Below, piece by piece: positions 1 through 57,900 of a DNA stretch of 64,000 bases. A model generated the notes under the pieces. It had not been told where the DNA came from. It made no database searches and was given only the letters and a program-made list of their open reading frames with translations. Source of the stretch: Candidatus Omnitrophota bacterium (lineage in GTDB: Bacteria > Omnitrophota > Gorgyraeia > Zapsychrales > Zapsychraceae); assembly GCA_020429915.1 (NCBI GenBank), contig JAGQKV010000005.1, positions 136,279 through 200,278 of the forward strand, in the 5' to 3' direction. The translations under genes were made by a program, and so were the position numbers. The number at the start of each line of letters is the position of its first letter. The stretch's first letter is position 1.

Positions 1-16
1 ACGAGGACTGGTTCTT

Positions 17-1828: not shown

Positions 1829-1894
1829 TTTGATATGAAATGTTTATATCAAATATTTTCCTACAAAAACTTAAAAAATCAAGAACTTTTACAA

Positions 1895-3735: not shown

Positions 3736-3810
3736 AATACAAGGCTTCTATCCACACACAAAAGTGCGGATATTAGAGGATTAGCGACGCGTTTTGACGC
3801 TGGATCAAGA

Positions 3811-3948
3811 TTACTTGGTAAGTCGCTTACGGCCTTTTCTGCGCCGACGGCTGAGAACATCGCGTCCGTCTTGCGTTTCCATGCGCTTGCGAAAACCGTG
3901 CTTACGTTTACCTTTTAAAATCGTGGGTGTCTTGAGGTTCTTTTTCAT
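3811..3948 (-). CDS. rpmH: 50S ribosomal protein L34
   Basis: Hand-translated 45-aa [48 protein letters not shown]. Too short for the ORF track. Divergent from dnaA. Confidence 0.85.
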
Positions 3949-5822: not shown

Positions 5823-5970
5823 TCACCGGGTTGTCCATAAGTTATTCACACAATTTTTGTTCATAAATCTTTTATTTTCAATGTTTTATTTTTTTATCCC
5901 TTTTTCCACAGGAACTACTGTTACAATTACTAGATGTAAATACAATATAGATTAAGCGAGGTGTTGATAA
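5823..5970. promoter_or_regulatory. dnaA-dnaN intergenic region: DnaA boxes plus AT-rich DUE (candidate oriC part II)
   Basis: TTATTCACA (about 5842) and TTTTCCACA (about 5900) are each one mismatch from consensus. They flank a 60-nt run of more than 80% AT. Confidence 0.5.
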
Positions 5971-7059: not shown

Positions 7060-7096
7060 ACAAAAATAAAAAAACGATGGCGATTGAAAATCACCT

Positions 7097-9828
<2,732 letters not shown>

Positions 9829-9858
9829 GACTAGCTTTACCAGAAAGGCCCCATAAAA

Positions 9859-18644: not shown

Positions 18645-20330
18645 ATGAAAACATCAACACACAGTAAATTTCTCACTTGGTTCATACTATCTTTGGTATT
18701 GCTGTTCGGAATGGGATTTCTGCCGGGTCAGGCCGCGCATGCGGAAGATATGGTGGATACCGTGTACGCCGATGAGGTCAACATGATTTTGGGTGAATTA
18801 ACCCAGCTAAAAGTCTACTCCTTAACCAGGCTTTCCATGACCGATCCGGAAATTGCTGATGTTGTTGATGCCGACGACTCACAAATCCTGCTGATTGCCA
18901 AGAATACGGGTCAAACTCCCTTGTTTATCTGGGACGAATACGGCAAGAGGGTCGTGATGATTAACGTGTCCGGGACCGAACTGACTTCGATTGCCGACCG
19001 CCTGCAAAAACTCTTCACCGATGCCGGCCTGAAGCACGTTTATCTGGACGTCAACGGACCTGAGGGCAAGGTCGTCATTACCGGTACTGTTCCCGAATAC
19101 AAGCAAATTCTTTTCGAGGATATTGTTTCCCCCTTTGATGAGCATATTATTAGCTTGGTAGAAGAGCAGGATATCGAAGACCTCGTCCAAATTGATGTTC
19201 AAATCACAGAGTTGAGTACCACGTTGACTAAGAGTCTCGGTATCGACTGGTTCTCGGCCGGAAGCGGCTCCGGAGATTCAGGATCCGGAGGAGGCCCTCT
19301 CAAGCTGAGTTACGGGGAAGATATTCCTACTTTTGACGGTTCGGTGGGCGATTTCTTCAAAATCGGTGATTTCCGCCGGGCAGACTCGCTGGTGGCCACG
19401 GTGAACGCCTTATTGGAAGAAGGGATGGGACGCATCCTCTCTCAACCGAAGTTGGTTGTCTTGAGCGGGGAAGAAGCGAGTTTTCTGATCGGGGGGGAAA
19501 TTCCGATCCGGACCACGACCTCCACCGGGGATTCCGTTCAAGAGAACGTGGAATTCAAAGAATACGGGGTGGGGATGACTGTAACCCCAACTATTCGCAA
19601 GGAAAAGATCGACGTCATCCTGAATATTGAAATTAGCGATATCGATGCCGCTAACGCCGTTGGCGAGGACGTCGCTTTCACTACGCGGAGCGCTAGTTCG
19701 CAGCTCTTTTTGGATGACGGGCAAACGATCGTCCTGGCTGGTTTGATTCAGCAGCGTACGGCGGAATCAATCAAGAAAGTTCCCTATTTGGGTGAAATCC
19801 CGATCCTGGGTCTGATGTTCCGGTCCAGATCCACTCCGACGCCGGATTTGGATACCGAGTTGGTAATCTCCCTGACGCCGTACCGCATTGATACGGGCTT
19901 GAATCCATTAACTACGGAAGAACACAAACGGATGAAGGATCAACCGAGATCCTCCGTTTCCCGCGCTGTGGTTGATGACATGGATATGAAGGAAGCGCCT
20001 AAACCCATGGCCACATCGGCTGTGCGCATTCCGGATGAAATGAAGGATTATGTGCGTGAAGTACAACGCAAGATATCTCAACAAATCGTTTATCCGCGGG
20101 AGGCCCGCGAATATGGTTGGGAAGGTACGGTTAAGCTCGGATTGCACATCCTGAACGACGGTACGCTGGCGTATGCCTTGGTCAAGGAATCTTCGGGCCA
20201 TGAAGTTTTTGATGATTACGCCCTAAATACGGCCAAAAACAGCGCTCCGTACAACAGTTTTCCTTCAGATTCCGACCTTCAGGAACTGAATATTACAATT
20301 CCCATCGTCTACAGTTTGCAAAGGAATTGA
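18645..20330 (+). CDS. cpaC: Pilus secretin (CpaC/RcpA family) with C-terminal TonB_C-like domain
   Basis: Signal peptide, then the secretin core (ILSQPKLVVLSGEEASFLIGGEIPIRTTT...EFKEYGVGMTVTPTI...TIVLAGLIQQ...VPYLGEIPILGLMFRS). The last 90 aa or so match the TonB C-terminal fold: YPREAREYGWEGTVKLGLHILNDGTLAYALVKESSGHEVFDDYALNTAKNSAPYNSFP. Confidence 0.85.
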   Translation: MKTSTHSKFLTWFILSLVLLFGMGFLPGQAAHAEDMVDTVYADEVNMILGELTQLKVYSLTRLSMTDPEIADVVDADDSQILLIAKNTGQTPLFIWDEYGKRVVMINVSGTELTSIADRLQKLFTDAGLKHVYLDVNGPEGKVVITGTVPEYKQILFEDIVSPFDEHIISLVEEQDIEDLVQIDVQITELSTTLTKSLGIDWFSAGSGSGDSGSGGGPLKLSYGEDIPTFDGSVGDFFKIGDFRRADSLVATVNALLEEGMGRILSQPKLVVLSGEEASFLIGGEIPIRTTTSTGDSVQENVEFKEYGVGMTVTPTIRKEKIDVILNIEISDIDAANAVGEDVAFTTRSASSQLFLDDGQTIVLAGLIQQRTAESIKKVPYLGEIPILGLMFRSRSTPTPDLDTELVISLTPYRIDTGLNPLTTEEHKRMKDQPRSSVSRAVVDDMDMKEAPKPMATSAVRIPDEMKDYVREVQRKISQQIVYPREAREYGWEGTVKLGLHILNDGTLAYALVKESSGHEVFDDYALNTAKNSAPYNSFPSDSDLQELNITIPIVYSLQRN

Positions 20331-20386: not shown

Positions 20387-22552
20387 ATGAATTGTAGAGT
20401 CATTTCTATCTTCAGCAGCAAGGGAGGCGTCGGAAAAACCCTTGTGGCTGTTAATCTTGCGACCGCATTGAGCAAATCCGGCAAGCGTGTCCTGCTGGTT
20501 GATCTTGACTTTCAGGCAGGCCAGGATATGGCCCGCATGCTCAACCTCGCCATTCGCAATTCCATCGTCGATATCATTCCGTTGATGCAGCAAGGTGGTG
20601 AAGCGCTCGAAATCAACGAGCACGCCACGAAACATCAGAGCGGTCTACATTTTATTCCCGCCGTTAAGACCAGCAAGCAAATCGCGCACATCACCCCGGA
20701 TAATATCAAGCCTTTTTTCCGCGAGTCCAAAAAACGTTACGACTACATCATTATTGATGCCGGCCGATCGTTTAGCGATGTTCTCATTTCCGCGCTGGAC
20801 TTTACCAATTTGATATTGCTGGTAGCCACACCCGACGTATTGGCTGTTTACCAGACCAAATGGTGCCTGGAGATCCTTCAGAACCTGCACTATCCCACCA
20901 AGATGATCAAACTTATTCTGAACCGGTCGGAAAGCCGGGGGAGTGTTGCGTGGCAGGAAATCCGCCAGGTGTTACAGGTGGAAATTTTCGGGCACATACC
21001 GTCTGATGGGAAAACTGTGGGGATGGCTCTTAACCGGGGGGTCCCGTGCTACATGGACAGTCCGCGCAGCCCGGTGGCCGAGGCATTCGGCAAAATGGTC
21101 GGACTGCTGAAGAAAGACAATCTTTATATCGAGACACATGATGTGGAAAAGACTCGGACGGTAGACGGATTTATGGCGCCGGGGGCGTTTTGGAAGAAAT
21201 TCGGGATATCCCAGCAGTCCTTCGGCACATCGGTGACCGAATATGTATCCGAAGAGGACGATATTATCTCTCTCAAGAAGCGCATTCACGAAAAGCTGGT
21301 GGAACGGCTTAACTTAGACGGTATTTCTACAGACGCCTTGGCCGACCCGGACACGGCGCAGAAGATTAAGAAAAGCGCTGAACAGGTCGTGCTTACACTT
21401 TTACTGGATGAGGCCGGGGGCCGTATATCCAACCAAGAAGACCGCACGCGGATTGTCCGGGATATTGTCAACGAGGCTCTGGGGCTGGGGCCACTGGAAG
21501 ACTTTTTGGCGGACCCGGACGTTACGGATATCATGGCCAACAACAAGGACGAAATTTATATTGAGAAGAACGGTAAGTTGATATTTACCAATAAGAAGTT
21601 TGTCTCGAACGACAAAATGCGCTCGATCATCGACCGGATCATTGCCCCGTTGGGACGGCGTATTGATGAGTCGACGCCCATGGTTGATGCGCGACTGCAG
21701 GATGGATCACGGATCAACGCGATCATCCCCCCTCTTTCCCTGAATGGGCCGATGATTACGATCCGGAAGTTCGGTCAGGAGCGGTTGGAGGCTGAGGATT
21801 TGATCACCCGTTATCAAAGTATGTCCCGGCCCATGGCCGACTTCCTTAAGGCCTGCGTAAGCGCCCGTAAGAACTTAATTGTCTCGGGCGGGACCGGCGC
21901 AGGCAAGACAACACTCTTGAACGTGGTCTCCGAGTTTATTCCTGATGGGGAACGTATTATCACGATTGAGGATGCTGCCGAGTTGAAATTAAAGAAAAGC
22001 CATTGGGGACGGCTTGAATCCCGCCCTGCCAATGTGGAGGGGAAGGGGGCGGTTACCATCCGTGATCTGTTCATCAACTGTCTGCGGATGCGTCCGGACC
22101 GTATTGTGGTCGGCGAATGTCGGGGCCCGGAGGTTCTGGACATGCTTCAGGCCATGAATACCGGGCATGACGGTTCTATGACCACTCTGCACGCTAATTC
22201 CACCCGTGATGTCGTTACCCGTATGCACTCCATGATCCTTCTGAGCGGGATTGAGCTGCCGGTCCGCGCGATCAATGAGATGATTTCTTCGGCTGTCCAG
22301 GTAATTGTCCATATCAACCGTTATTCGGATGGGACCCGCAAGATTACGGGTATCAGCGAGACCGCCGGGCTCTCGGCAGATTTTCAGCTCATCCTAAAAG
22401 ACATTTTCATTTTTCGGCAGAAAGGTCTGGATTCGGACGGAAATGTCCAAGGATCCTTTGAGGCAACGGGATTCTTACCGCAGTGCTTTGATGACTTTAC
22501 CACCAAAGGCATCCTCTTTGAAAAGTCATTATTTGATAAACCAGCCGTGTAG
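20387..22552 (+). CDS. cpaF: Fused MinD/ParA-like (CpaE/TadZ ATPase domain) - CpaF/TadA secretion ATPase
   Basis: The N-terminal 260 aa have the deviant Walker A SSKGGVGKT (CpaE/MinD-like). The C-terminal 450 aa are CpaF-like (IRKF, GGTGAGKTTLLN, VGECRG, GHDGSMTTLHANS). Confidence 0.85.
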   Translation: MNCRVISIFSSKGGVGKTLVAVNLATALSKSGKRVLLVDLDFQAGQDMARMLNLAIRNSIVDIIPLMQQGGEALEINEHATKHQSGLHFIPAVKTSKQIAHITPDNIKPFFRESKKRYDYIIIDAGRSFSDVLISALDFTNLILLVATPDVLAVYQTKWCLEILQNLHYPTKMIKLILNRSESRGSVAWQEIRQVLQVEIFGHIPSDGKTVGMALNRGVPCYMDSPRSPVAEAFGKMVGLLKKDNLYIETHDVEKTRTVDGFMAPGAFWKKFGISQQSFGTSVTEYVSEEDDIISLKKRIHEKLVERLNLDGISTDALADPDTAQKIKKSAEQVVLTLLLDEAGGRISNQEDRTRIVRDIVNEALGLGPLEDFLADPDVTDIMANNKDEIYIEKNGKLIFTNKKFVSNDKMRSIIDRIIAPLGRRIDESTPMVDARLQDGSRINAIIPPLSLNGPMITIRKFGQERLEAEDLITRYQSMSRPMADFLKACVSARKNLIVSGGTGAGKTTLLNVVSEFIPDGERIITIEDAAELKLKKSHWGRLESRPANVEGKGAVTIRDLFINCLRMRPDRIVVGECRGPEVLDMLQAMNTGHDGSMTTLHANSTRDVVTRMHSMILLSGIELPVRAINEMISSAVQVIVHINRYSDGTRKITGISETAGLSADFQLILKDIFIFRQKGLDSDGNVQGSFEATGFLPQCFDDFTTKGILFEKSLFDKPAV

Positions 22553-23007: not shown

Positions 23008-24666
23008 ATGGGGGTTACGCATAAACTCAGTCCGGAAGTCCTGAACTACATTCTTCAGCAGAAGCAGTCTAATCCTGCGCTTGGCTGCCGCAAATTGGCA
23101 GAACTCGTCTCCGCGCATTTTCAAATCAATGTTTCTAAATCTTCTGTTAACAACGTCTTAAAGGATGCCAATCTAAGTAATTCTGTCGGCCGTCCCAGTA
23201 AAAAGGCCAAAGAGAAAATGAAAAAATTTCAGATACCGTCAGATAAAAAGCAGCAGATATCACAGGCGCTGCAGCAAATTCCGATACCAGAAAATGTCCA
23301 AAAACAAGAGGCGACGGAAGAGAACCCTTCCGAAAAGCAAGTAGCTGTCGCCGAGTTACAGCATCCGGCCCGGGATGTAGAATGGAGGGAGGTCATCGCC
23401 ATGAATAATGCAGGCGGTATGCTTTTGTTAGCTGCCTTTTATGAAAACATGGACGAGGCGCTTATGGGAGGTCTGCTCAATGACTATAATAGTTCACCGG
23501 ACAGGCGCCTATTCGAGAAGAAATGCAACGCCGCACTATTAATGTCCAGTTTGGACATTATTGAGTCCAATGAACGCGATATCCTGCTCCGGGAGCAGGC
23601 AAGTTTCGAGTTCAAAGTTAATGAACTGCAAGATCTTATGAATATTGCGACTACGGATATCGACCGCATTCTTTTGCAAACCAAGGTTGATTTGGAGCTT
23701 TCTCAATTAGCAAACACTGCCAGCGGGTTTGCCGTTTCTCTGGAGTCAGGAAAGGTGATCACAATGGATCCCTTTTTATCCATTGGGGGCCCGGGATCTG
23801 ATGCTTCGAATCCGACCGTTCCGATGAAGTCTGCCATCGACAAACTTTCCGAGGAGTTGTTGGTAAACAACCAGCCGCTGCTGTTCACCCGGACTGAAGC
23901 TGCGGATCCAGCGGATGCCGTTGCGTTGATGGCGGCTTTTTTCGGAATTGATGGCTACAAGTTGAATAATATTAGCATATTAGGCGATAACGGATTGCCG
24001 CAGCTTGAATTTACTTACATCACGGAGAAACAGCGGCGTTTTGTGTACGGGATTTACCAAAAGGATGAAGATTTTTCCCATTATGTTAAGGCCTCCCAGT
24101 GGGCGGAGCGAAGTTCCTATGTGGATCGGCAGGGCAAGAATTGGGAGTACAGTGTTACCAGGACGGATTACATGGGTTCTCAGATTTCGGGATTCTCGGA
24201 TGATTTGTGCGTGGTCACAGTCTGGTCGGCCGGCGACACCAATCCGCTATTGGCCATGGTGACCAATTCGATGGATGATCATAAACTACTGTCAGACAGA
24301 TACTTATCGTATTTTGTTCAAGGCAGGTCACGGGTGTGGCATGATGTCGGCTCTCATATTGGTGCCGTGGAAGCTGTGGGGGAAGAATTTAACTGTCTGG
24401 GCGATGTATTCCGAAAATTCGCCCAATTTTTATCGTTGTTCGTGGCTCGCGAGTATTTGGGGGGGGGCGGCGATCCCGAAACGTGCAGCAAGGTATGTAC
24501 AACGCCGGGGTCATTACTACAGGGTAAGGCGATAGCCGAAGTCTGTTTGCGGACGGGAGGACTGGATGATGGGCTTGTCAAAATACTGAATAAATGTGTA
24601 GAAATTGTGAATATGCGAAAAATTTACGACCGTCAGCACCGATTATTAAGGTTTATTGCGATATAG
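23008..24666 (+). CDS. 552-aa protein with an N-terminal IS630/Tc1-like HTH (GRPSKK motif); remainder unknown
   Basis: N-terminus KLAELVSAHFQINVSKSSVNNVLKDANLSNSVGRPSKK resembles the transposase N-terminal HTH with its GRP(R/S)K motif. No DDE triad was recognised and no terminal inverted repeats were seen. Confidence 0.5.
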   Translation: MGVTHKLSPEVLNYILQQKQSNPALGCRKLAELVSAHFQINVSKSSVNNVLKDANLSNSVGRPSKKAKEKMKKFQIPSDKKQQISQALQQIPIPENVQKQEATEENPSEKQVAVAELQHPARDVEWREVIAMNNAGGMLLLAAFYENMDEALMGGLLNDYNSSPDRRLFEKKCNAALLMSSLDIIESNERDILLREQASFEFKVNELQDLMNIATTDIDRILLQTKVDLELSQLANTASGFAVSLESGKVITMDPFLSIGGPGSDASNPTVPMKSAIDKLSEELLVNNQPLLFTRTEAADPADAVALMAAFFGIDGYKLNNISILGDNGLPQLEFTYITEKQRRFVYGIYQKDEDFSHYVKASQWAERSSYVDRQGKNWEYSVTRTDYMGSQISGFSDDLCVVTVWSAGDTNPLLAMVTNSMDDHKLLSDRYLSYFVQGRSRVWHDVGSHIGAVEAVGEEFNCLGDVFRKFAQFLSLFVAREYLGGGGDPETCSKVCTTPGSLLQGKAIAEVCLRTGGLDDGLVKILNKCVEIVNMRKIYDRQHRLLRFIAI

Positions 24667-27603: not shown

Positions 27604-28896
27604 ATGAATCCGACGGTCGGATCAAAAAAGCATAGCAAGGCTCAAACCGCAATAGAGTTGGCGGTTTTCGGTTCTGTTATTATTTTTCTGATGGGGTTGA
27701 TTGTCCGAGCGGTGCTTGGGACGTCTTATCAACAAGGCAGCCAATTAAAGGCGCTCCGTCTGGCCATGTTGACCTCCTTTGAGTATAGCGAAGGGATCAA
27801 GGCGCCGCCGGGAGATTGGCGGGATGGAACGACCTCCCGTAACGCCGCATCTGTTTTAATCATCGAAGACCGGCTTTCAGCATCTTCCGCAAAATTCGCC
27901 ACGGTGGACCGGACGCCGATTTTATCTCAAGGAACCGCTACGCATTCGCGGAACTTATTCATGCCGGTGGAAATAGGTGAGTACGCCAATATTCCCATCG
28001 CAGATTTCTTCGTCAATGGTGTACATATTCCATTAACCTTAGGAGGGTTTGTGACCCACCCGTTGGATGACGTTGTTTTCCGGCAACGATTTAACCATGA
28101 GGCCACCGATTTTCGGCAATGCAGCGGGAACGTAAATTCGGTGTTCGAAGTCGTGAACGGAACGACTTGGTATCGCTTCGATCTGGATCACAGCGGCGGC
28201 GTGCCCAATGACGGGGTGGATGACACCAACTGTGACGATTTTTTCTGGCAGTGGCATGCCGGAGATCCCAGCCGGATTGATCCCGAGACCGGCGAGTGGA
28301 CAAACGTCGATGTGGATGCTGATGGTTACCCCGAACAGGTCTTGAGGGTAAACGGGGCTGCCAGCGTTACCACGTTGGATTATCAGGAAGGCGATATATA
28401 TTTCTCCAATGATCCGTCTGTCCCGGCGCCGGGATTCGGAAATCAGGAGGTCCAGATGTTTACGTTCTCCGACAATCCCCTGGGCACGGGCGACGGCGTA
28501 GGCACCTATTTGCGGGTAGATGAGGGGCGGTTATTTTCCCCGCTGACGGGACGGTACGCTCGGGATGCCCAGCGCAAGGACTCCGTAGACATCATCCAGC
28601 GAACGTTGCAATTGACCAAAAACACGGAAAGATTCTGTACTAATGCCGGAGTGTTAGTCACGGCCGGAACACCGGAGGGGAATCGGGCCGGATGGACGGC
28701 AGCGACCCCTAATCCTGTGGAAGTATGTTGTAGTGGCAGCGGATGTTGTTTTGGTCCGGTTACCATAACCCAGACTTGTATGGTGTATGATCAGCCGTAT
28801 CCGCTCATTTATGTGCGGAGTAGAATCGTGGATAAGCACGGCCGGAAGTATATTACACCGACCGACTCCGATCCGGTTGTAAACTTCACACGATAA
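27604..28896 (+). CDS. TadE-like pseudopilin with large C-terminal domain (430 aa)
   Basis: SKA|QTAIELAVFGSVIIFLMGLIVRAVLG matches the TadE-type N-terminus. The C-terminal region contains CCSGSGCC. Confidence 0.65.
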   Translation: MNPTVGSKKHSKAQTAIELAVFGSVIIFLMGLIVRAVLGTSYQQGSQLKALRLAMLTSFEYSEGIKAPPGDWRDGTTSRNAASVLIIEDRLSASSAKFATVDRTPILSQGTATHSRNLFMPVEIGEYANIPIADFFVNGVHIPLTLGGFVTHPLDDVVFRQRFNHEATDFRQCSGNVNSVFEVVNGTTWYRFDLDHSGGVPNDGVDDTNCDDFFWQWHAGDPSRIDPETGEWTNVDVDADGYPEQVLRVNGAASVTTLDYQEGDIYFSNDPSVPAPGFGNQEVQMFTFSDNPLGTGDGVGTYLRVDEGRLFSPLTGRYARDAQRKDSVDIIQRTLQLTKNTERFCTNAGVLVTAGTPEGNRAGWTAATPNPVEVCCSGSGCCFGPVTITQTCMVYDQPYPLIYVRSRIVDKHGRKYITPTDSDPVVNFTR

Positions 28897-28950: not shown

Positions 28951-29247
28951 ATGTTGAAAACTCAGTGCAGAAAGGCCGCCAAATCACGTGGACAGACCAT
29001 GATCGAATTCACGTTTTGTATGATTATCGTATTTTTGATGATTTACTCTATCACCAAGGTTTTTGAATGGTCTGGTCGGGAACTGGTGTCGCGGAGAGTG
29101 GGACATACGTCCCGGTTAACGACTTCAGGCGGGGGCCTTACCCGAAGTTATACCTCCGCCGCCGATAGTGAGCAAATAGCCCAAATATCCCCGTTTTATT
29201 CTTCCGGGGTCGACATGAATGCCGTTTGGCGAGGCGGGGTTAACTAG
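28951..29247 (+). CDS. TadE-like minor pilin (98 aa)
   Basis: KSRG|QTMIEFTFCMIIVFLMIYSI. Confidence 0.6.
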   Translation: MLKTQCRKAAKSRGQTMIEFTFCMIIVFLMIYSITKVFEWSGRELVSRRVGHTSRLTTSGGGLTRSYTSAADSEQIAQISPFYSSGVDMNAVWRGGVN

Positions 29248-29251
29248 AATA

Positions 29252-32200
29252 ATGACCAAATTTCTTCACAATCTCCAGCGTTCGAAAAAAGGTCAGGTGG
29301 CCGTCGTAATACTGTTGATTGTGGCCTTTGCCCTCATTTTTTATGCCGCTACGTTGAATCTGGGTCGCATCGGGCAAAACAAAGTGGTTACGCAGATCGG
29401 CGCCGCGCAAGGGGCATCCGCATTGGCCTCGGCCATGGCCAGTTACGGGCAATCCCTGTTTATGCAACAATTGGGCGGCCGCCAGAAGAAATGCCAGTCT
29501 TCCGGGCTGTTGGGGGCCATTTTGGGATTTGTTTTGGCCGTCGTTCTTACCATATTTCTCTGGGAAGCGGCACCCGCCACCATGCAGCTCGCCGCCCAGG
29601 CCCTTTTGGTCATCGGGACGGTCCTGGCGGCCACAAGTCTAGTCCTACAAATTACCGTCATACAACCGGGTATTACCAGTGCGTGGAACAGCCTAGCAGC
29701 GGATCTCTTGCCGCTTGTGGACCAGTTTATGGAAAATGCGCTACGGGGTGCGCTGCAAAGTGCGACCTCAGACCCGGTTCAGGTTCCTGACCTGAACGAT
29801 ATGGATCTGGACGGGTCGTTCGGTTTGGATGCGGTGACCAGTGAGGCGATCGACAACATATCCCGGTTCAGTCTGTACTATGCCCAGATATTTGACGGTA
29901 TTACGGTCAACTTTATCCCCGAAGCAGAGAATTTTCAGGTGGCCCTTCAGGATTTTGTCTACCAGTTGCCTCCCGTAGGTCCGAACACCACGGCCGGGGG
30001 ACTTCCCGCCACCTGTGGTGCTGCTCCGGCCTGCGGACCCGATCAGGAATGTGTCGATGTGGAAACCGCCCCCGTTTGTGTCCCGGCATGGGGGCTTTGG
30101 GATCCTCTCCCCGAGTATTTTGTCCCCGGGCCCATTCGGCCGCCACCAATTGATGTTATCTATCCATTTACGATACCACAAGATTTGACGCACCCGTGCT
30201 TTAGTGATCCTGCGAACGTACCATCGGTGTGTAATCCGTGTTGTCTTCCGTTAACGACACCTGACCCCAGGGGACCTTCCTTCGGTCAGCTGAGGGCTAG
30301 GCCCGGTTGTTGCGAGTGTTCTACCCTGCCCTCCGTCATCACCATTCCGGACCCCACCGACCCGACCGGTGTAGCGACGATAGATGTGTTTAATCCGGAT
30401 TTCTGTACCGTGGACGGATGTATTGATGCGTGTGGCGGCCCGTTGCAATGCCCTGTAAACGCGGCATCGCGGGCCTGTTGTGATGCTTGCGGGGATATTA
30501 CCCAGGAATGTGGAACGTCAGCCACCTGTCAGGCCCTCAGCCCCTACGGATTCACCGAGCCCACACTGGGAACCTTTTACGCGTGGGTCTATAACGCCTA
30601 TGAAGAAAATTGGGAAAACTCGTTCCGGTCCTTCCGTGAGCAACTCGGCCGGGATGATGAGCACCGTCTGTATTTCAAGGATTCCAGCAACCCCAATTGG
30701 GCGCCACAATTTGCCCCGCCTTGGCTGGGAAGTCGGTTTTATGCGGACGACTCGACTGGTTTTTATATCGGTCTTCCGGTCGTTCCTCCGGCTGTCGGGG
30801 AAAACCGGCGTGGCGTCTTTCCATTTTTATGGAAGATTACAACGTGGGGGTATGATCTGGATGATTTAACCACGCCCGATCCTACGGATGTGGATCCCAT
30901 TGATGATCCGTTTGACCAACGCTGTAAGTGGTGCGATGAAAATCGCGGGGTGGTTTGTGATCCGCGTCTGCCGTATCAGATGGTACAGTTAAATTTACCC
31001 TTTGATCCCACAACTCTAACTATTTACCCAACATACTGCGTCGACACCTATATTGATAACGTCAGTCTGATCCCATCAGGGGGATCGCTTGAATATCCTG
31101 CCGCGACGTGTGTCGATCCGGATACGTATGCAGGAAACGCATTTTGGAAGCGGGGCGCCGACCGGTTCTGTTCGGAAGGCGACATTGGCGGGGATTCTGC
31201 CTGGCCATATGAAAGCCAGTGTCCGAAATATACGGATGGTGGCTGTTTCCTGGATCCAAACGGCAACGGGGTGGCTGACTGTCCGGCAGAGTGCGACACG
31301 AACGGCAACGCGATTCCGGCCCTCTGCCAGTGTGGCGATCCCTCGGCGACGGATCCTTTGCTCGTACGCGGGGATCTCTTCCCGGAAGATGTATTGGATG
31401 AGCTCATATATGGTTTGACCGCGTTTTTTGACGATGCCAACGCATTTCTTGCCAGGGGACGGGCGAACATCGCTATTGATTTTGAGAATTGGTTTAACGA
31501 CTGGCAGGCCTGGATTGACCCCGGTCCATGGGCCAATCAAGCCGATGTGCTCGGCGATCCGGCTTATCCCAATCCTTATCCGGACTGCTACCCTTGGGAT
31601 ACCGACTATGACCCATCAACGCCCGACGTCTGCCAATCGGAGCCCGGGCAACTGTATTATTGGCTGCGTAACATCAATTTGATTCATGATGAACTTATTG
31701 AGATCAAGGAGACAAGCCATGCCGGCGTCAACTGTAACCGGGACCCGTGGTGCGTTCCCATTGCCGGTTGTGCAGATGTATCCGCATTTGAAGAGGTTAC
31801 ATTCGATTATAATGCCAATGGCATCAACGGCGATGTCGAAGACATCATCGCATGTCTGACATTCAATGTGGATGGCTACGACTACGCTTGTAACGGCGGC
31901 GTTCCAGACGCTACGTGTCTGAGGGCTACGGGAGACCGACAGGGGAACGATTTCCGTTATGCCAATTGTATGTTGTCCTGTTCAGCCGCGGCATGTACCA
32001 ATTTGCCGCGGTCTGTGTTGGCGCCCGCAACTTACGATCCGAACGCATATGTAGCGGCAAACGTCCTGGACGAACCGGATATGTCGGCCATGCTCTTGTG
32101 TGTCCACAGCTGTGGTAATCCCACTTGCACCGCCTTGCCCGCAAACCGGAGTTCAGACGGGACGCCGTACGTTTATACGGCTACGCCGCCGCCGGCCTTT

Positions 32201-33172
32201 GATCCGGCCTTGGATTGTACCGGATTACAGCTGAATGATGCCAACGGCTGGCGGACAGCTGTCCGGGATTCTCTGTTGATGGCTAACCCTACATGTGACA
32301 TCGCACCCGGAGGCTGGCTGGATCTGACCGGGACTTCGGCTATTGAGGCTGCAAATCAAGTTATAAAGATGCAATTGCGCCGCGACTTTCTCGAGGATCT
32401 CGTCAACGATATGAATCAGTTTATCGTCACCATGAATACGGCCCGGATCAAGTTTTATGAGTTTCTGACGGCCCCCGGCCCAGTGGCCGACCTGATTCAG
32501 GCTCGATTTGACTATGATGCGAATCCACCGGATCATTTCCCGTTCCAGGCCATTTATGGCTGGCAGGATCCGATCCCGCCTGAAATTCGTCTGGGAGCCC
32601 CGGGAGGCGAATCCTATTGGCATATCGTCAAAGTTGAGGGACGAATGCCCAAGAGGTGTGACAATGCCTGCGGTGTAGGCGGAAATCCGGATCCCGAGTG
32701 GCCCAAAGTCCGCACATATACCAAGAAGATGGGATTGAAGCGATGTTATGAACTGGTTAACACAGATGGTATCGTCAAATTCCGTGTGTTACGTTTTGAC
32801 GAGGCGCCTAATTCGACGGGAAGTGGTCTCACATTCCCGAACGGACAGCCGCTGTGGAAATTCCGTTTCTTCCACCCCAGCCCTAATCGAGGGGATGTTG
32901 ATGCCGCTACACTGGGGACCACATGTGACTCGATTATGATCACAGATCCCAGAGTGCCGGTAGATACGTTCAAAGGGGCGTTTTTCATGAACCAGCGGGT
33001 CGGAACTGGAGATACAGACCCTGTTTTGGGGAATAATTGGAACTGTTGGAACAGAACCCACTTCATTCTTGCCAATGGCGGGATTGGAACAGAAGTGTGC
33101 GCACAATATTACCTTAAACAGGGTGTTCGCCCCGGTATGACATTTTCATTTATCCCTTGCGAAGCGTTCTAA
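29252..33172 (+). CDS. Giant TadG-like pilin-domain protein (1306 aa) with two extra TM helices and an extremely Cys-rich extracellular region
   Basis: Start at the ATG 29252, just after the upstream gene's stop at 29247. N-terminus SKKG|QVAVVILLIVAFALIFYAATLNLGRIG is TadE/G-like (PF13400 type). More than 70 Cys, in CxxC, CC and CxC clusters. Confidence 0.7.
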   Translation: MTKFLHNLQRSKKGQVAVVILLIVAFALIFYAATLNLGRIGQNKVVTQIGAAQGASALASAMASYGQSLFMQQLGGRQKKCQSSGLLGAILGFVLAVVLTIFLWEAAPATMQLAAQALLVIGTVLAATSLVLQITVIQPGITSAWNSLAADLLPLVDQFMENALRGALQSATSDPVQVPDLNDMDLDGSFGLDAVTSEAIDNISRFSLYYAQIFDGITVNFIPEAENFQVALQDFVYQLPPVGPNTTAGGLPATCGAAPACGPDQECVDVETAPVCVPAWGLWDPLPEYFVPGPIRPPPIDVIYPFTIPQDLTHPCFSDPANVPSVCNPCCLPLTTPDPRGPSFGQLRARPGCCECSTLPSVITIPDPTDPTGVATIDVFNPDFCTVDGCIDACGGPLQCPVNAASRACCDACGDITQECGTSATCQALSPYGFTEPTLGTFYAWVYNAYEENWENSFRSFREQLGRDDEHRLYFKDSSNPNWAPQFAPPWLGSRFYADDSTGFYIGLPVVPPAVGENRRGVFPFLWKITTWGYDLDDLTTPDPTDVDPIDDPFDQRCKWCDENRGVVCDPRLPYQMVQLNLPFDPTTLTIYPTYCVDTYIDNVSLIPSGGSLEYPAATCVDPDTYAGNAFWKRGADRFCSEGDIGGDSAWPYESQCPKYTDGGCFLDPNGNGVADCPAECDTNGNAIPALCQCGDPSATDPLLVRGDLFPEDVLDELIYGLTAFFDDANAFLARGRANIAIDFENWFNDWQAWIDPGPWANQADVLGDPAYPNPYPDCYPWDTDYDPSTPDVCQSEPGQLYYWLRNINLIHDELIEIKETSHAGVNCNRDPWCVPIAGCADVSAFEEVTFDYNANGINGDVEDIIACLTFNVDGYDYACNGGVPDATCLRATGDRQGNDFRYANCMLSCSAAACTNLPRSVLAPATYDPNAYVAANVLDEPDMSAMLLCVHSCGNPTCTALPANRSSDGTPYVYTATPPPAFDPALDCTGLQLNDANGWRTAVRDSLLMANPTCDIAPGGWLDLTGTSAIEAANQVIKMQLRRDFLEDLVNDMNQFIVTMNTARIKFYEFLTAPGPVADLIQARFDYDANPPDHFPFQAIYGWQDPIPPEIRLGAPGGESYWHIVKVEGRMPKRCDNACGVGGNPDPEWPKVRTYTKKMGLKRCYELVNTDGIVKFRVLRFDEAPNSTGSGLTFPNGQPLWKFRFFHPSPNRGDVDAATLGTTCDSIMITDPRVPVDTFKGAFFMNQRVGTGDTDPVLGNNWNCWNRTHFILANGGIGTEVCAQYYLKQGVRPGMTFSFIPCEAF

Positions 33173-36945: not shown

Positions 36946-39900
36946 ATGGACGAGAAGCCGGACAACTTGGAACCGGAAGAATCAGGAAATCCTAGCCCTC
37001 AGGGTGAGGATTTTCGTCTGTCTCCGGACTTGGTTAATCCCGATTCTCAGGCCGATACAGTTCCTGGCAAGACGCTGGAGTTGAATTTTGCCGAAGATGA
37101 CGACGTGGGAGTGCATCCCGGGCAAATTGACTTGGGCCCATACGTCGAGTCCGACCGCAAAATGCCGACCTTCCACAGCCGCTTCCATTCCTGGATGAAA
37201 GCCGTATCTCTTGCAATCATATTGGTTTTTGTTCCGGAGCAGGCCAGCTGGGCATTTAATTACAATCCGTTGGTTCTGTGGGGTGACAAATCTGCGTACC
37301 CGTCTCAATCGGCCGCTCAGCCGCATGGCGCGGAATTCAACGAGCTTGTTTCCGAACACATTGCCGGTAGTGTTTACAAATTGCTCGGAGACGTCGCCTA
37401 CAAGGACAATGCCCGAGTCAAATTGCAGCTTCCGGCTGGCGGGGCAAACTCAGACCAAGATGTTTCGTTGAACGTAAACATCAAGGGCGAGAATCCCTTT
37501 AATCTTGAATACATAAATCAGGTAGTATCTTGGTTGCGCCAGCCGGAAATCCATCCGCTTAACTGCGGGGTTTATGCGTTGCGGGATATCCTGACTGCGT
37601 ATGAAATTGATGTTGAGCTGGAGGAGTTGTCCGTTTCCTCGCTTGCTGTCGACTTGATGAGTCATATTGTCAAGCCGGGCGAGCCGAAGCTCAAGACCTC
37701 GTTGTATTCCATCAGCAAAATCGTCGACGCCTACGGCCTCGGATTTCGCAATGCCCGTCTGCCGCCGCAGGATGTTGCCAAAATCGACCCGCCATTCATC
37801 GCCAGTTTCAACAATGAACACTTCGTCACTGTCACCGCCATCCAGGACGGCATTGTATACTACAACGACATCGGCCGGCCTTCGCAACTGAGTGAAGCTT
37901 CTTTCGTTTCACAGTTGAGTGGTTTTGTCCTCGCCCGAAATCTCAACCAGCATCAAAACTTAGAAGTCGAATATATTCCGGATTCTATGGCCGCCTTTGT
38001 TTGGGGAGATAAGTGGCGCGACCAGTCTGACGACTTGCCGGGGATGTATGGTTTCTGGGATGAGTTCGGCGGCATCATCATCGGCTTGGCGCTGGCAGGG
38101 ATCGGATACGGTTTGGGGCAGCTGGCCGAAATGTACAAAACGGTCGATATGTTGGCCAAGCTGGCGCAACTTTTTGGTTCACTCGGTCAAATGCTGGGCG
38201 GGGGGATGGCCGCATTTGCGGTTAGCTTCGTGTTCTCTTATGGTCTTTCCCAGTTTGCTTCCTCGGTAGCGACAGTCTGTTACATGAAGGGCGCCTGTAG
38301 CGAAGAAGGGGCCATGTTGTTAAACATAGGTATCTCCGTCGGGGGGAATCTGTGGGCCGGAGGTGTAATTGAGGCCGCGAATGCCGGAGTAACGTCTGCG
38401 TCCGGAGCTACATTGGGAACCATGATGATGGCGGGACTCAAACAGGCCATGGTCAATTTGCCGTCGGCTCTCGCGTATTCTCTTGTTAAACGTTTTGTCA
38501 TGGTCAAGGTCGCCGAGTTTCTTATCAAGGAGTTGGATCTTGCGGACGAGGACGGCGAAGTAGATATCCTGACGCAAACCTTGGTTAATATTGTTGGGGG
38601 GGCTGTCGGTGGGATTATTGGATCGGCAGCCAGTGCTGGGGTGCAGTGGGTTGGTGGAAAGATTGTCGGAGACTCAGGCAATCAAGGCGGTTCCGTCACG
38701 CATGATTCCGAAGGCAAAGTCAACGGATACACGCCGAACTACTCTATATATACCAACGCCCAGGCGAGTGGTTTCTTTATGGATTTCATGAGCCAGGCGC
38801 TTACCAACGAGTTGACCGGGGCCTTTAACCAGCTCGTTGGTCTCGCTGGCCGATACCTTCTTGATGCTGTGGGGGTGGATGCGGATTCCGTGTTGTCTCA
38901 GGTGTTTGGGCAAATGATGTCTTCGCTGATGGCTGTCAGCATGGAGGCCTCGGCCGCCGCAGATTTGGACGAACATCGGGACGAGATTGAGGAAGAGCTC
39001 ACGAACATATTGGTGGAAGAAGGACACCTAAGAAGATCCGGCGATACATTGGAGGTGGTTGCAGACAAGAAACCTACGCAGGCGCAGATGGACGAGTACA
39101 CCCAGCGGGCCATGAACAAGGTCCGGGGAGGGATCGGTTTCCTGTCTCGCCTGAGCGGTGCTTTTTCGCAAATGGGCGGTGGCTTCATGAACCTTTTCAA
39201 CAGCGGGCGTACCAACAATAGCGGGACGCCGGGGGCGCCGCCTGTTGATCCGACAAATTTGGTCGGCACCGCACCTGGTTCCGAGGCGGGGGAAGGCAAG
39301 GGAGAAGGTAAGCTTGATTTAACGGCTGCTGTCGATTTGGCGCTGAACCAACAAGGAGCCGCAGTAAGCCTGTCGAATTTTCAGTTCAACCGGACCTTCA
39401 ATCTTATGACCCAAACCATGATGACCGAGGTGACCGGTATGATCCTGCGCGGTTTGATCAGTCTTGTGGCTGCCGCCGTCATGGACGTGATTGAAAATGA
39501 GTTTGTGGAAGGCGAACGCGAGGGGGTCAATCAAACGGACCGGTTCACGTTATTTATTACCCGGCTCATCACCTTCGGGGTGATGACAGGTGTTACGGCC
39601 GCCGTAGCCATTGCCACTTCCGAGGATGTGGTGACGCCCGACGGAAAAGCGGCTACGGCTGCAGCCGGGGAAAGTGGCGGCGCCACTGGCAGTTTCCTCA
39701 ACGCGGACCCGGATAACGCGACGACAAGGAACGGCATGTCCAAGAGCGAGCAGATGTGGTTTTTTGCGCTGGAGCCGTTTGCCAATCTGTTCATGGGTAT
39801 GGTGCGTAGTATGGCGACGGCCAACGGGACATCTCCGCTCTTCTTCTCATTCGAAGAAATCGGCAACGGCGGCCAGGCGTTAACCGATGAGCAGAAGAAT

Positions 39901-48900: not shown

Positions 48901-51900
48901 CAATCCTTCGTTAACACATTGGAGGATCTGCGCAATTGGGGATTAATTTCTATCAGCGATCGCGATATGCGGGCAATCCGGAATGGTGATGCCCTTTCCC
49001 GTCGGGAGACCGACTTTGACTTTAATGTCAATTCGCCATTTGCTGAACACAGAGAGTCTTTGCCGGAGGGCCGGGCCGGGACCAATTTTGCCGCGGAACA
49101 GCAGGCCCGTCTGGACGCCGGCGGGGCGACCGTGGCTGAGATGGGTATGGCCCGTATGGGCTTGTTGGAGGCTATGCAGTTTGCGATCGCCAGCGGCCTG
49201 ACGACGCGGGAGGAGCTGAGCGCAGGGCTGCTCGAGCGCGCCAATCGCGGTGACCAAGCCGCAGCTGATCTATTGGCTCTATTCAACAACGGCCTTCAAG
49301 GGGAAGAGTTCCGTGGGGCCATGGAAGGGGCGCGCAGCGCTGAAGTTATCCGTGTCTACACGGAGCGTTTTCAGCATGACGACTTTAAGGCTGTGTGGGG
49401 CTTCAATGAGGAAGGTCAATTCGGAGCATTGCAGGTGCGGGACTTTAACCGTTCGGAAGGATGGTTCGACTGGATCGGCAACGAGAACTTTACGGCATCC
49501 GGCCTTACCGGGCAAGAATCCGGCACAACCGGGGAAATCGATGATGACGAAGCGGTGTATGTTTCGCGCAATGAGTGGCAGGATTTGACCACCTTGGGTG
49601 ATGCGGGGGGTAGGGAACCGTCGGAGAAAACCTTCGAAGAGGCATACCAGGAAAACAAAGGGGGCACGTTGGCCCAGTTGCGCGCCATTGAAAGCTTCGG
49701 GCCGTTGCGTTATGCCGGTCAAGGTTGGGGTATGGCTGATGACGATACCGGGACGATTTTCTACGGTGAAGATGGCAAGCTGCGAACGGGCTGGATTAAC
49801 CGATCCAACGATCAGGAAGCCATTATGCGAAACATCGGCGGTGAAAATGCCCTCCGCTTCGCCGGTCAATTGGATTCCATGGGGACGGTAGCTACAATCA
49901 TGGGGGCGCTGGTTATTCTGGACGTCGTGATCACTGTGGTTGAAGTGGTCGCTATTATAGCCACGGGAGGTCTGGGTACGCCGGTTGCTGCCGGAGCTGG
50001 GGAAGGGGCTAAGCAAGGGATCAAGGCTGGCGTCCGGTTTGGGGTTCGCTACGGTGCCAGACGGGCTGTGATGGGCACGATGCGCAAGTATGGGGTGCAC
50101 GCAGCCTTGGAGGTGGCTACGCGATTGGCGGCGCATACGGCAGCTACCAGGGGCACCCGACTTTTAGCCGGTATCGCGGTGCGTGGGCTTGCGCCTATTT
50201 CCCGAAGACTGATGGCTCCCGGAGTTGTAGGGGCGTTCATGCGGGGGGCGAGTGTAAGCTATACCAAACGGCGCCTGATAGCATACGGTTTGATCGGCGG
50301 ATCCATCAATGCAGCGTTAGGTTCCTATGCCCGCGGCGAAGTGTCAATGGAAACCTTTACGGATTTTGCCCACGGCGCATTCCTCTTTGGTCTCTTGTCC
50401 CGCCGGGCGCCGGCCAAGGCGGCCGGTTCGGCGCTTCAGCGTGGCCTTACCGGAAGCTTGATGGCTGGGGCGCAACGGGCTTCCGAGGCGGTCAGATCAA
50501 CTAATTTAGGTGGTCGGGTGGCGAGTACTATGCTTGGCAGGGGGGTAACGAGCGCCGGATTTATCCTTGGCGCCGGAGTCTTTGGCGGTTCGGTTGCGGC
50601 GTTGCAACTCGGTTCGAGAATGCGCGGCAACGAGGCCCCGGGACTTTACGAGTCGCTCGCCATTGGAGGTTTGGCGACCGCGGCGATATTAGGCGGCGGC
50701 CGTTTGGCGGCGGCCCAATTCGGCGGCGCCTATGCCGGGGCCAAACAGTTCGGACAGACAATTGCCTCTATTGGGCTGCTCGGTTTGGGGGTGGGTACGT
50801 TGGTCCACGGGACAGATATGAGCCTGGAGGAACGGACCGCAAAATTGACCGGGGACGATCTCGGATTTATGTATCGCACGCGCAAGGCGTTGACAGGCGG
50901 GTTACAAACAGCGTCGTACATGACGATAGTTGCCGGCGGTATGCGCGGACTGGGTTATGCCGCCACGGCCGAGCTGAAGACCGGGAGCAGAGTGGGCGTA
51001 TCCATGTTAACCGGTGCCGGATTCGGCGGTGCGATGCGCGCGAATTATCTCGCGTGGAATAGCGATACTGCTGATGTAATGTGGGATAATGCCTTGTTGG
51101 ATATCGGAACCTATGCGGCGGGCGGTGGTTTTCTCTTGGGGCCGACCGCCTTGCTCGCGATGCGAGCCGGAGCCAGTTCTCCGCATGCAATTCGGGAGCA
51201 GATGGCGCGGACCGCATTAAGGCAGGCGGGAAGAGAGCTGGCGCAAACTGCCAAGCTCGATTCACGTGCCATCGAGATGGCCCTCAGAAGCAAAACTCCG
51301 CAGCAGCTGGCCCGGTTGGAACGGGCCGTTCGCTGGGAATTGGCGGCGCCGCGTACGTTCGGCGAACTGTCCATGCGCGGCAAGGTGCTCAATGCCGTCG
51401 GGTTTGCCGGAGTCGGCGGGGCTGGAAAGGTCGGTTACGAATACTTCTTTAATTCGTCCGCTGAAAACCCATACTCCGTGGGGCAGGGCGTGGCCGATTT
51501 CATCGGCGGCGCCGGTCTGGCCATGTTGGCGCTCTTTGCCATACGCGGGGCCAAGAATCTGAGTTTGTTGCGTAATTTCTCCGATGATGCGGCCTTCCAA
51601 TCCGCCCGTTTGGGCGCAGCTGCCAAGGGTGTTGAGGCCGCCGGTCCACGGTCTGCTGCCCAGGCCTTGTTTGATCAGTCCGCTGCAGGTGCCGCGAAGT
51701 GGACGCTTGTTTCTCCGGCTTTTACGATCGGTGGCGCGCTGTGGACAGGGCTTGCGGCCCGTGTCGAAACAATGATCGACGGCGACGAATCGCGTTACCG
51801 GAAATTCTTCGGTCCGGGGCGTTTACCGGCGTTTATCCTCCAAACGGAAGGCGGATACATTAATCTGATATCCGGACAAGGGCTTCAAGCCGTCTATGAC

Positions 51901-54900: not shown

Positions 54901-57900
54901 GGCAAGCAGTTCAAAGAAATGTATAAGGGAATAGATTTCGAACCGATCGTCTGGGGATCCCGGCCCTATGAAGCCGGTGCGGACGCCAAAGATTTTGCGC
55001 TGCTGGTCGATAACGTTACTGGTCTTAGGAATGAACTGCGGATCGCCCAAGGCAACGCCGAAAACAGCGGAGGATATAAAGCCAGAATTGAAAAAGACGT
55101 GAATCAACGCATCGATGCCGCGCTGGACAAATTCCTTCAAGACCGGTCGCCGAACACGTCAAGAGACGCCATCAAGGAGTTTGTTGTCGAACAGGCCGAT
55201 CAGATCCTTCAACAGTACGACCGGGCGGGAGCTGCATACAGGCATGCCAAAAAAGATTTCGATGCGCATGGAACGCCGGGTCGTGAGGCGCAATCCGAAA
55301 TCCTCAGTCTCTTCTTTACGACAATCAATGAAATGGCCATGATTGAACGAAATCCTTCGCTGGCCGGAAACAACAGAATCGGCCGTGTCATGTCCGCCCC
55401 GACCGGTGCCGGTAAGTCCGTTGCCCTGGCCCTGGCCCTTGATTATTTGACCCGGATAAAGACAGCGGGCGATAAGACGACCATCGTGGCCGTGCCGAAC
55501 TTGAGCGTTAAGAAGGAAGTTATGGATATCGCCCGGATCATGGGGACCCGAATTAATGATGTGAGTGTCGGAAGCGGCGGTGAGACCGGCAAAAGCCTTA
55601 GCTTGGCCAAAGAGTCGATAAATATCGCCTTGCATTCCGAGGCGCAGCAACTTCTATTGAGTGGCCGATTGGGTAAGGACGGAACCGTCAAGAATTACCG
55701 GCTTTTCGTTGACGAAATTGACGAATTCATCCGTATGAACGATATGCGCGAGGGTGATTCCAGTGCGAAGGACGTTGAGCAATTGCGAAATTCTACTTTG
55801 CCCGCAGATAGGCGTCTGCTCCGGCGGGAACAGTCTTTACGGGAAGACATCGAAATTTTTGCCCAGATCGTCGAATCCAGGATCAGGGGGTTTGAAAATC
55901 AGGGAGACATCGCTAATCCGGCAGGTCGGGTGGTCGAACTTCTGGACAATGGAAAAACCCGTTTTATCGACCATGATGGAATCATGGCCGAATTCAAAGC
56001 CGCCTTGGCAGAACGAAAGGGTATGAGCAACCCGGAAGCCGCCTTCCGTGCATTTGAGAGGGAATTGCGTGAGGTCAGTACCGAAACCAACCATAAACGT
56101 GATGATGCTGGGAATATTATTCAGGAGGGGACGCCGGTTAATTTCAACACGTTAATCAACGAAATCGGGGCGAGTATCCGTAGGGGCGAAGGTAGTGGTG
56201 GGGCGTCCTATGACAAAGGGTCCATCACCAAGGTTGCCACCGTTGACCGGGGCGGCAGACAGTCCGATACCACTCCGGAAGTTCGCGAGCAGGCCATGGC
56301 CAATGCGGTTACCGCGCTTATGCGAGCGGCCAGAGACGGACGATTGGAACAAAATTCTCCGGATGCCGAGATTGCCTTCCAGTTGGCCTTGCGGCAAAAG
56401 CCGGCCAGCCGTGTTGCCCGCGCTTCGGATGTTATCGGTCAGGCAGACATGTTTATCGGTTTTTCAGCGACTGCCCAGTCGGTCAAATTCTATTTAGAGA
56501 ATATTGAAGGCGCCGAGATTCGTGTGGTGCGTAGCGAAAGCAACAAAGAAATCGATTCTACCGAAAGATCCGAATTGATGTTGCTTAATGACGACAGTGT
56601 CCGCGATATTGTCGGTCCGGACAGATCCGTGCGCCGCCAAATCGCTTTGATTGAACGCCGCATTTTGGGAACATCCCGGGAAGATACCAAAAGCACCGAC
56701 CTGAACCGTGACCGGATTTGGGTCAAGCTGGATAGCAATAATCAGGTCGTCAGGGCGGAGAAAGGTCAGGAAGGCGCCATAGAAATCAACCGTTCGCCCG
56801 TCACCGGTCTGCTTATCCAGAATCTTGCCTTGTTTGAGGCCTTGAGTAAGCCCGGTACACGGTTGCGTGAGGGTACCGGCGCTGAAAAATACGATGTCGT
56901 GTCAGCGGCAAGCGGCAGTGAAAAAGCGGAAACGGCTGCCAAAGCCAAGATTCAGCGGGCATTGAGTACGGATCTTGTCGTGGAAATACTGCAAACTCAT
57001 AGGGAAATAGCGGCGGCCCGTGAATCAGGTGACAGCGCCAAAGTCAGTGAACTTGATGCCAAGTTGCAAAGACTGGAATCCGAACGCAACGTTGTCGTCG
57101 TCTATAACGGTTTGGTTACAGGTTCAAACATCCTGGGCGCGAACGCGGGTGTCCGATCTCTGCGTGCGCAAGTGGAAGCCGGGGAATTCGCCGTCAAGGA
57201 ACTTACGGAAATGGCGAAGGCCGTGAGCGGGGAAACCACCCGTTCCGGTCTGGACAGCCGCCTTAACACATTGCTTAATTATGTTTCCGACGCCGATAAG
57301 TTCGGTTTGACCAAATCCGCTTCCAGCGTTCAGGGCGCGCTCAAGGAAGCGATGGACCTCAGCCGTCAGCTCGGGGAAACCACGGATGCTGGCAAAGCCA
57401 GTGCTTTGAGTTCACGAATCGCCACCCGGTTGCAGGAGGCCAGCAACGAAGTGTCCCGAGAGTTGCGGCCGATGCAGGAAAGCTACGACTTAACCTCCAA
57501 AATCAATGTCGTCTCGTGGGGAGCCAAGCCGACCGCTGAAACGAGCCAGGCCTTGGGTCGCGGGGATATTAATGAAGATGTCGGTTCCAAGCGTGCGCGC
57601 GTTAACAAGGCCTTGTCTGTTATCGCCATTCATCACGAAGGTGACATCATGAGTGACTCGTTGATCCGGGCCGCAGAGGGTATTTTGGCCAAGGGCGGCG
57701 GAGAACAGCGGGATGCGGACGTCATGGAAATGTTCCGCAAGATCATGGATGAAGCCGGGTTCCGCGGAGAGATGAATCAGGTTGTTCAGGTGGTGCGTCA
57801 GGGAACGCGGACCAATGTCGTTGAGTCGAAGGTCATGGAGTTGGCCGGTAAACGGGCGGAGCAGATAAAGATGGACCGTTTGTTGAATGTTCTTAATACG

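Follow-up and report, generated by a model that had tools for sequence, protein, structure and literature searches.

A highly divergent superfamily-2 NTPase module in a predicted membrane-anchored giant protein of Candidatus Omnitrophota

The subject of this analysis is a nucleotide-binding module located approximately 6,150 residues into a giant protein of a Candidatus Omnitrophota bacterium. The window, which is the whole stretch of DNA that was analysed, comprises 64,000 nt and corresponds to positions 136,279-200,278 of contig JAGQKV010000005.1. The reading frame of the giant gene is open from a stop codon at nt 36931 to the end of the window, with its first ATG at 36946, and the same gene is found on the public Logan contig SRR6747735_2951, where it exceeds 37.4 kb, its product reaches at least 12,471 aa and the end of the contig still lies inside the gene. 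An earlier note on this DNA had identified a Walker A and a Walker B motif in the protein, had described them as part of a 'DEAD/SecA-like' module with the spacing of a RecA-like motor domain, and had concluded that the giant protein is an energy-using machine rather than a passive adhesin. The results described here suggest that these motifs belong to a genuine, extremely divergent superfamily-2 NTPase module within a membrane-anchored Omnitrophota giant protein, and that the module likely functions as an ATP-driven mover or remodeller of a polymer at the membrane. A probability of roughly 0.6 is assigned to this reading. The homology of the first lobe and the selective conservation of the catalytic motifs are demonstrated at the level of sequence; ATP hydrolysis, the substrate and motor action are what we infer.

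The motifs themselves were recovered exactly as the earlier note had placed them. Translation of nt 55381-55740 on the forward strand yields GRVMSAPTGAGKSVALALAL...LFVDEIDEF, the first residues of the Walker A stretch and of Walker B being aa 6146 and aa 6253, respectively (coordinates of all features are collected in Table 1). The order of the motifs (SAPTGAGKS, VAVPNLSV, LHSEAQQL, VDEIDE) is in register with the alignment of the DEAD-box proteins, and the spacing between motif I and motif II is approximately 98 aa. A generic Walker A pattern carries no meaning on its own in a protein of this length; approximately 0.8 such patterns are expected by chance in 9,018 aa of this composition. This expectation is the point in favor of the explanation that the Walker A-like and Walker B-like strings have simply arisen by chance in a very long protein. 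Nonetheless, the SAPTGAGKS site is the only convincing P-loop among the 9,018 aa, and the pairing of TGxGK[ST] with hhxDExD 80-130 aa later was found in none of 2,000 shuffles. The chance explanation is further contradicted by the coincidence of the motifs with the conservation maxima in a homologue and is refuted by the profile matches described below, making it scarcely credible.

The Pfam family DEAD (PF00270) matches aa 6148-6286 with a score of 28.3 bits (E 1.7e-6, profile positions 18-148 of 167) when an 851-aa segment is searched, which exceeds the curated cut-off of 26 bits, and the match becomes borderline (26.1 and 25.3 bits) when longer chunks of 3,000-4,000 aa are used. Comparison of profiles with hhalign, using as the query a two-sequence profile built from the module in the window and its single homologue (see below), provides a match to a set of five E. 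coli K-12 DEAD-box helicases (RhlE, DeaD, SrmB, DbpA and RhlB) with a probability of 95.7%, an E-value of 1e-8 and a score of 72, and motifs I, Ia, Ib and II are in register in this alignment. When the lobe 1 block was compared with domain 1 of the DEAD-box proteins, a z-score of 18 against column shuffles was obtained. Because of this hhalign match and the lobe 1 z-score, the first RecA-like lobe of a superfamily-2 ATPase is regarded as established by homology. The spacing described in the earlier note is consequently that of a superfamily-2 lobe with canonical separation of motifs I and II, as indicated by Pfam DEAD, hhalign and the conservation in the homologue. Beyond DEAD, no Pfam, NCBIfam or PDB sequence match of weight was obtained for the module: the NCBIfam scan returned no family, and searches of the PDB by sequence and by profile returned noise only (E > 0.1). 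Weak Pfam matches to DSBA (E 0.043) and partial_CstF (E 0.078) were dismissed as noise.

When 1.84 billion cluster representatives were searched exhaustively with phmmer, one match was obtained (E 3.5e-151). This homologue, P0001, is MBZ0166710.1, a 2,480-aa fragment from Candidatus Omnitrophota annotated as 'DEAD/DEAH box helicase, partial', which runs colinearly with residues 4126-6700 of the giant protein and is 43% identical to them. Identity between the two sequences peaks at Walker A (72%) and motif II (70%), reaches its maximum across 2,575 aa in residues 6476-6525 around the sequence GFSATA (78%), and drops to 18-34% in residues 6300-6400. The catalytic motifs are thus the most strongly constrained positions in the region, and the location of the conservation peaks on these motifs argues for a working nucleotide site. 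No match came from word-indexed protein searches, whether the query was the module, a profile from which the P-loop had been left out or the 121 aa of highest conservation; neither P0001 nor the protein of the window itself was retrieved, and both are evidently absent from that index. The phmmer search likewise missed the window's protein. Since this protein was not returned even though its gene sits on public contigs, giant ORFs (open reading frames) seem to be missing from the protein libraries, and the rarity of the family may be overstated. Scans of genome contigs and metagenome contigs for the module found none, a custom DNA pattern for NDMREGD[ST] identified 23 loci of which none was related by tblastn, and tblastn of plasmids and phages gave no match to the module.

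The sequence that follows motif II sets this module apart from DEAD-box helicases. A lineage-specific insertion of roughly 200-230 aa separates motif II from the most conserved block of the module, and it is within this block, approximately 245 aa past motif II, that the putative motif III GFSATA is located (aa 6505-6510, nt 56458-56475). Removal of the insertion in silico allows the DEAD-box alignment to run through the SAT sequence, and the score rises only slightly, from 72 to 78. The position of the insertion is that at which SecA carries its preprotein-binding domain (PPXD). Residues ~6289-6409 (nt 55810-56170), inside the insertion, form the only part of the second of two AlphaFold2 models with moderate confidence (predicted local distance difference test, pLDDT, 60-86); they are modelled as helices with a few short strands, and yet they constitute the part that is least conserved between the homologues.

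The location of the insertion raises the question of whether the module is a true SecA derivative of the type NBD1-PPXD-NBD2 (NBD, nucleotide-binding domain) without scaffold and wing domains, which has diverged beyond recognition by hidden Markov models (HMMs) and serves as a built-in translocase pushing parts of the giant protein, or its partners, across the membrane. Similar to SecA (NBD1-PPXD-NBD2-HSD-HWD, the last two being the helical scaffold and wing domains), the module has a large insertion between motifs II and III of lobe 1, exactly at the PPXD position. Additionally, hhalign aligns the module profile with a SecA profile in a colinear manner over approximately 450-490 columns (score 30-38, P 0.012 to 8e-4, probability 3.5-24%, z ~5). 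The best local stretch, which spans the return from PPXD to NBD1, motif III and the start of NBD2, pairs query positions 373-451 with E. coli SecA residues 371-432 (ITFQNYFR...GMTGTA...PTNRP); it is weak (score 38, P ~8e-4, probability 24%, z ~4.8-5), and it lies above all 40 shuffles. The block that follows the insertion gives z = 5.5 against SecA motif III plus NBD2 and z = 1.2 against DEAD-box domain 2. Published Omnitrophota giant proteins, moreover, carry SecA_DEAD together with SecA_PP_bind (West-Roberts et al. 2023, bioRxiv 10.1101/2023.11.21.568195).

In contrast, direct tests for SecA were negative. Pfam SecA_DEAD (PF07517) and SecA_PP_bind (PF01043) do not match the module even at E <= 10. 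An HMM built from 16 diverse SecA/SecA2 sequences of a plasmid collection, covering E. coli residues 1-830 and run with --max, gave -1.6 bits on the module and -1.0 bits on P0001, and it detected no helical scaffold or wing domains in aa 6050-7100. Pairwise comparison of E. coli SecA with the module gave no match by HMMER or hhalign. The 16-sequence HMM gave 175 bits on a SecA-like domain deep in WP_163916267.1, a 3,473-aa protein annotated as 'hypothetical' from Mycolicibacterium arabiense plasmid pJCM18538, and 105 and 95 bits on WP_323733494.1, a 2,966-aa 'DEAD/DEAH box helicase' from a Candidatus Bandiella woodruffii plasmid. All three are superfamily-2 modules deep in very large proteins; the two plasmid-encoded domains are clearly SecA, whereas the module of the window scores below zero. 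SecA-type motors embedded in giant proteins are evidently not confined to Omnitrophota. Lobe 1 is also much nearer to the DEAD-box proteins (z = 18, score 69-72) than to SecA NBD1 (z = 7.9, score 28), the insertion falls below the shuffle mean when compared with PPXD (z = -1), and NBD2, HSD and HWD were not found. The hhalign probability is only 24%, and the score was no higher after six divergent SecA-like sequences, that of M. arabiense among them, were added to the SecA profile. Differences extend to the motifs, as motif I reads PTGAGKS here and TGEGKT in SecA, and motif III reads SAT here and TGT in SecA. The sequence comparisons therefore do not support membership of the SecA family, and the likeness to SecA comes down to a parallel in topology and, around motif III, a weak local resemblance; a SecA origin is considered possible, if doubtful. 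Of the composite label 'DEAD/SecA-like', the DEAD half is consequently retained and the SecA half is reduced to this local resemblance.

A different possibility is that the module is a helicase or ATPase of the DEAD-box type that acts on RNA or DNA and not on protein. Among the family matches, those to DEAD-box helicases alone are significant, a weak PADLOC match to the helicase HamB (E 0.035) was obtained, and the homologue was named 'DEAD/DEAH box helicase' by NCBI. The homologous lobe 1, with xxTGxGK[ST], Ia, Ib and DExD in register, is shared with the DEAD-box RNA helicases, and the putative motif III reads SAT, the sequence known from DEAD/DEAH RNA helicases. However, no canonically spaced Q motif can be recognized by eye upstream of motif I, and the Helicase_C lobe, which bears the RNA-binding motifs IV, V and VI, is not detectable. 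Additionally, the large insertion before motif III is foreign to DEAD-box proteins, in which motifs II and III are separated by approximately 30 aa, and the module forms part of a membrane protein exceeding 12,000 aa, in a membrane and pilus context that offers no hint of nucleic acid. A module of this type is judged distinctly unlikely.

Several results weigh against assignment of the module as an ATP-driven motor at the membrane. A second RecA lobe with motifs IV-VI was not detectable by any method used: there was no match to Helicase_C, SecA or any other Pfam family for a second lobe at E <= 10, and hhalign comparisons of aa 6500-6960, aa 6590-6960 and the post-motif-III block with DEAD-box domain 2 or SecA NBD2 remained at shuffle level (z -1.3 to 0.7), with the sequence past the motif III junction giving z = 0.2 for SecA NBD2 and z = -1.3 for DEAD-box domain 2. 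A candidate for motif VI found by eye, QALGRGD, lacks the second arginine and statistical support and is not claimed. Both AlphaFold2 models are of low confidence (pLDDT 44.4 from the single sequence, 41.5 from the two-sequence alignment) and, as a consequence, the RecA fold is deduced from homology. Furthermore, the membrane anchoring of the giant protein is predicted from a crude hydropathy scan, and the region past the last transmembrane cluster is presumed to be cytoplasmic solely because an ATPase needs ATP. A Foldseek search with the second AlphaFold2 model returned meaningless matches at the level of noise. By eye, AEKGQEGAIEINRSPVTG or VVVVYNGLVTGSNILG could also be considered for motif V, and these candidates are likewise without statistical support and not claimed.

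In every superfamily-2 motor known to us, ATP hydrolysis and movement require a second RecA lobe. Consequently, a degenerate single-lobe nucleotide-binding domain, such as a pseudo-ATPase or an ATP sensor with a structural or regulatory role and no motor activity, has to be weighed. The failure of every test to find a second lobe or an arginine-finger motif VI is consistent with such a domain, as is the finding from Pfam scans that most of the sequence around the module is without recognizable domains. Arguing against degeneration, the GK[ST], DExD and SAT sequences are intact and are the most conserved positions between homologues that are 43% identical overall. A further 150 aa past motif III are also conserved; this region could begin a second lobe, a suggestion without statistical support, and the missed lobe may reflect only the thinness of the two-sequence profile. 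Such a degenerate domain is judged rather unlikely.

An equally improbable proposal is that the module represents a separate, unclassified superfamily-2 lineage. In this hybrid, a DEAD-box-like lobe 1 would be joined to an insertion that takes the SecA position without being a PPXD, and the second lobe would be either absent or beyond recognition; the module would act as a built-in ATP engine by which a chain exceeding 12,000 aa is threaded or assembled at the membrane beside a Tad-type pilus.

The interpretation of the module as a diverged superfamily-2 motor at the membrane draws on the architecture of the giant protein. A Peptidase_C39 domain is present near the N-terminus and contains an LNCGVYAL motif, the cysteine of which was read by eye as the putative catalytic residue. 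Two clusters of transmembrane-like segments were identified, and the ATPase module lies approximately 1,200 aa beyond the second of these. From aa 4940 to the end of the window, the hydropathy scan detected a single marginal hydrophobic segment (aa 7238-7257).

This arrangement has been described for related proteins. Most Omnitrophota giant proteins have been reported to contain "divergent secA DEAD helicase domains", which follow transmembrane anchors and have no scaffold or wing domains, with C39 peptidases near the N-terminus and genes of the type II secretion system (T2SS) nearby, and export of the giant protein by its own SecA-like domains was suggested as a possibility (10.1101/2023.11.21.568195). 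Similarly, when long Omnitrophota proteins were grouped by architecture, PF03412 and PF07517 defined the two largest clusters, and flanking Tad cassettes were also noted (bioRxiv 10.64898/2026.06.07.730766). The locus in the window is alike in phylum, in a gene of more than 30 kb, in the N-terminal C39 domain, in the many transmembrane segments, in the adjacent Tad/T2SS genes, in an ATPase downstream of the transmembrane cluster and in the lack of SecA scaffold and wing domains, and it fits the published description in every contextual respect. In contrast to the published modules, which were compared by description only, the module of the window matches DEAD (PF00270) and not SecA_DEAD (PF07517), and SecA_PP_bind is missing. 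Modules of this kind have therefore already been described for Omnitrophota giant proteins, and the window adds a very divergent example.

Based on this comparison, the module would be this protein's counterpart of the reported 'divergent SecA/DEAD helicase' modules. It is proposed that the module binds and hydrolyses ATP, probably with the aid of a second lobe that has diverged within the 150 conserved aa past motif III, and that ATP use would drive the movement or remodelling of a polymer (polypeptide or nucleic acid) at the membrane. The context and the literature point to polypeptide as the most plausible polymer, in which case parts of the giant protein, or partner proteins, may be exported or assembled with the help of the module. 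The description of the giant protein as an energy-using machine and not a passive adhesin is thus a plausible and reasonable one, which has already been put forward in the literature for this class of proteins and is putative here.

Roles in attaching to host or prey cells and in attacking them have been attributed to the giant proteins of Omnitrophota. For polypeptides longer than 10,000 residues, insertion, export and energy supply are the questions at issue. An embedded ATPase with intact, selectively conserved motifs is among the few features of such a protein that are open to experiment, and a well-delimited fragment of approximately 850 aa is suited to biochemical work. The conceptual addition is small, such modules being already reported. 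The example does indicate that some modules have diverged so far that the SecA label fails every sequence test, and because this label is unsupported by any of the sequence tests used here, caution is advised against assuming a SecA-like mechanism.

Table 1. Coordinates of the features in the 64,000-nt window (nt positions are those of the window; aa positions are those of the giant protein)
Feature	Position (nt)	Strand	Residues or length	Basis or remark
Chromosomal origin region	1-12309	parB, parA, yidC on -; dnaA, dnaN, gyrB, gyrA on +
Pilus secretin (Secretin + T2SS-T3SS_pil_N) fused to C-terminal TonB_C	18645-20330	+	561 aa
ORF with N-terminal ParA/MinD-like part (CpaE/TadZ-like; AAA_31, ParA, CbiA) and C-terminal T2SSE (CpaF/TadA-like)	20387-22552	+	721 aa
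ORF between pilus ATPase and pilin-like genes	23008-24666	+	552 aa	weak HTH_32, 21.6 bits, below cut-off of 33.7
ORF in Tad-like operon	27604-28896	+	430 aa	no Pfam match
ORF in Tad-like operon	29219-33172	+	1,317 aa	no Pfam match
Giant ORF	36946-64000	+	at least 9,018 aa in window	ORF continues past window end
First transmembrane-like cluster, glycine-rich hydrophobic segments	37201-39615	+	aa 86-890	hydropathy scan only
Peptidase_C39 domain, N-terminal	37561-37935	+	aa 206-330	PF03412, 26.1 bits, cut-off 22
Second transmembrane-like cluster	49897-51765	+	aa 4318-4940	hydropathy scan; kept in P0001
DEAD-type RecA-like lobe 1, motifs I/Ia/Ib/II	55387-55803	+	aa 6148-6286	Pfam DEAD and hhalign
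Motif I / Walker A, SAPTGAGKS	55393-55419	+	aa 6150-6158	translation; identical in P0001 except last S to T
Motif Ia region, TTIVAVPNLSV	55477-55509	+		aligned to PTRELA of DEAD-box proteins; PTKEV in P0001
Motif II / Walker B, LFVDEIDEF (55702-55728), with conserved tail IRMNDMREGDSS	55702-55764	+	aa 6253-6273
Lineage-specific insertion between motifs II and III	55768-56358	+	~aa 6275-6471	middle 18-34% identity to P0001; no detectable PPXD similarity
Most conserved block, EIAFQLALRQ...GFSATA...IRVVRSESNKEIDS	56359-56595	+	aa 6472-6550	P0001 alignment, hhalign
Conserved region past motif III, including AEKGxEGA..NRSPxTGLL	56596-56895	+	to ~aa 6650	P0001 alignment

A Tad/T2SS-type pilus operon is located directly upstream of the giant gene. 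The operon contains an RcpC/CpaB gene, a secretin with a C-terminal TonB fusion, a fusion of a ParA-like protein with a CpaF ATPase, small pilin-like ORFs, two ORFs without Pfam matches, and TadB-like and TadC-like genes. Two of these genes are fusions. The presence of secretin and TonB_C in one ORF is, to our knowledge, unusual for a Tad/CpaC secretin, and the CpaE/TadZ-like and CpaF/TadA-like proteins are usually encoded by separate genes. The two Pfam-less ORFs keep their position on other contigs that carry the locus of Tad operon and giant gene.

Since the window opens with the chromosomal origin region, where the GC skew changes sign near 4-6 kb, the start of the giant gene can be placed approximately 31 kb from the origin, and the gene is co-oriented with replication. 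The G+C content of the giant gene (36946-64000) is 0.53-0.61, compared to 0.43-0.54 in the upstream region (1-36000), and its GC skew is strongly positive throughout. The high G+C content may come from a composition rich in Gly and Ala and not from a foreign origin. GyrA is 86% identical to that of one Candidatus Omnitrophota metagenome-assembled genome and 70-76% identical to those of others. The TadC-like protein is found with an identical sequence in 64 blocks of a public assembly collection, indicating that the organism, or very close strains of it, has been sampled repeatedly.

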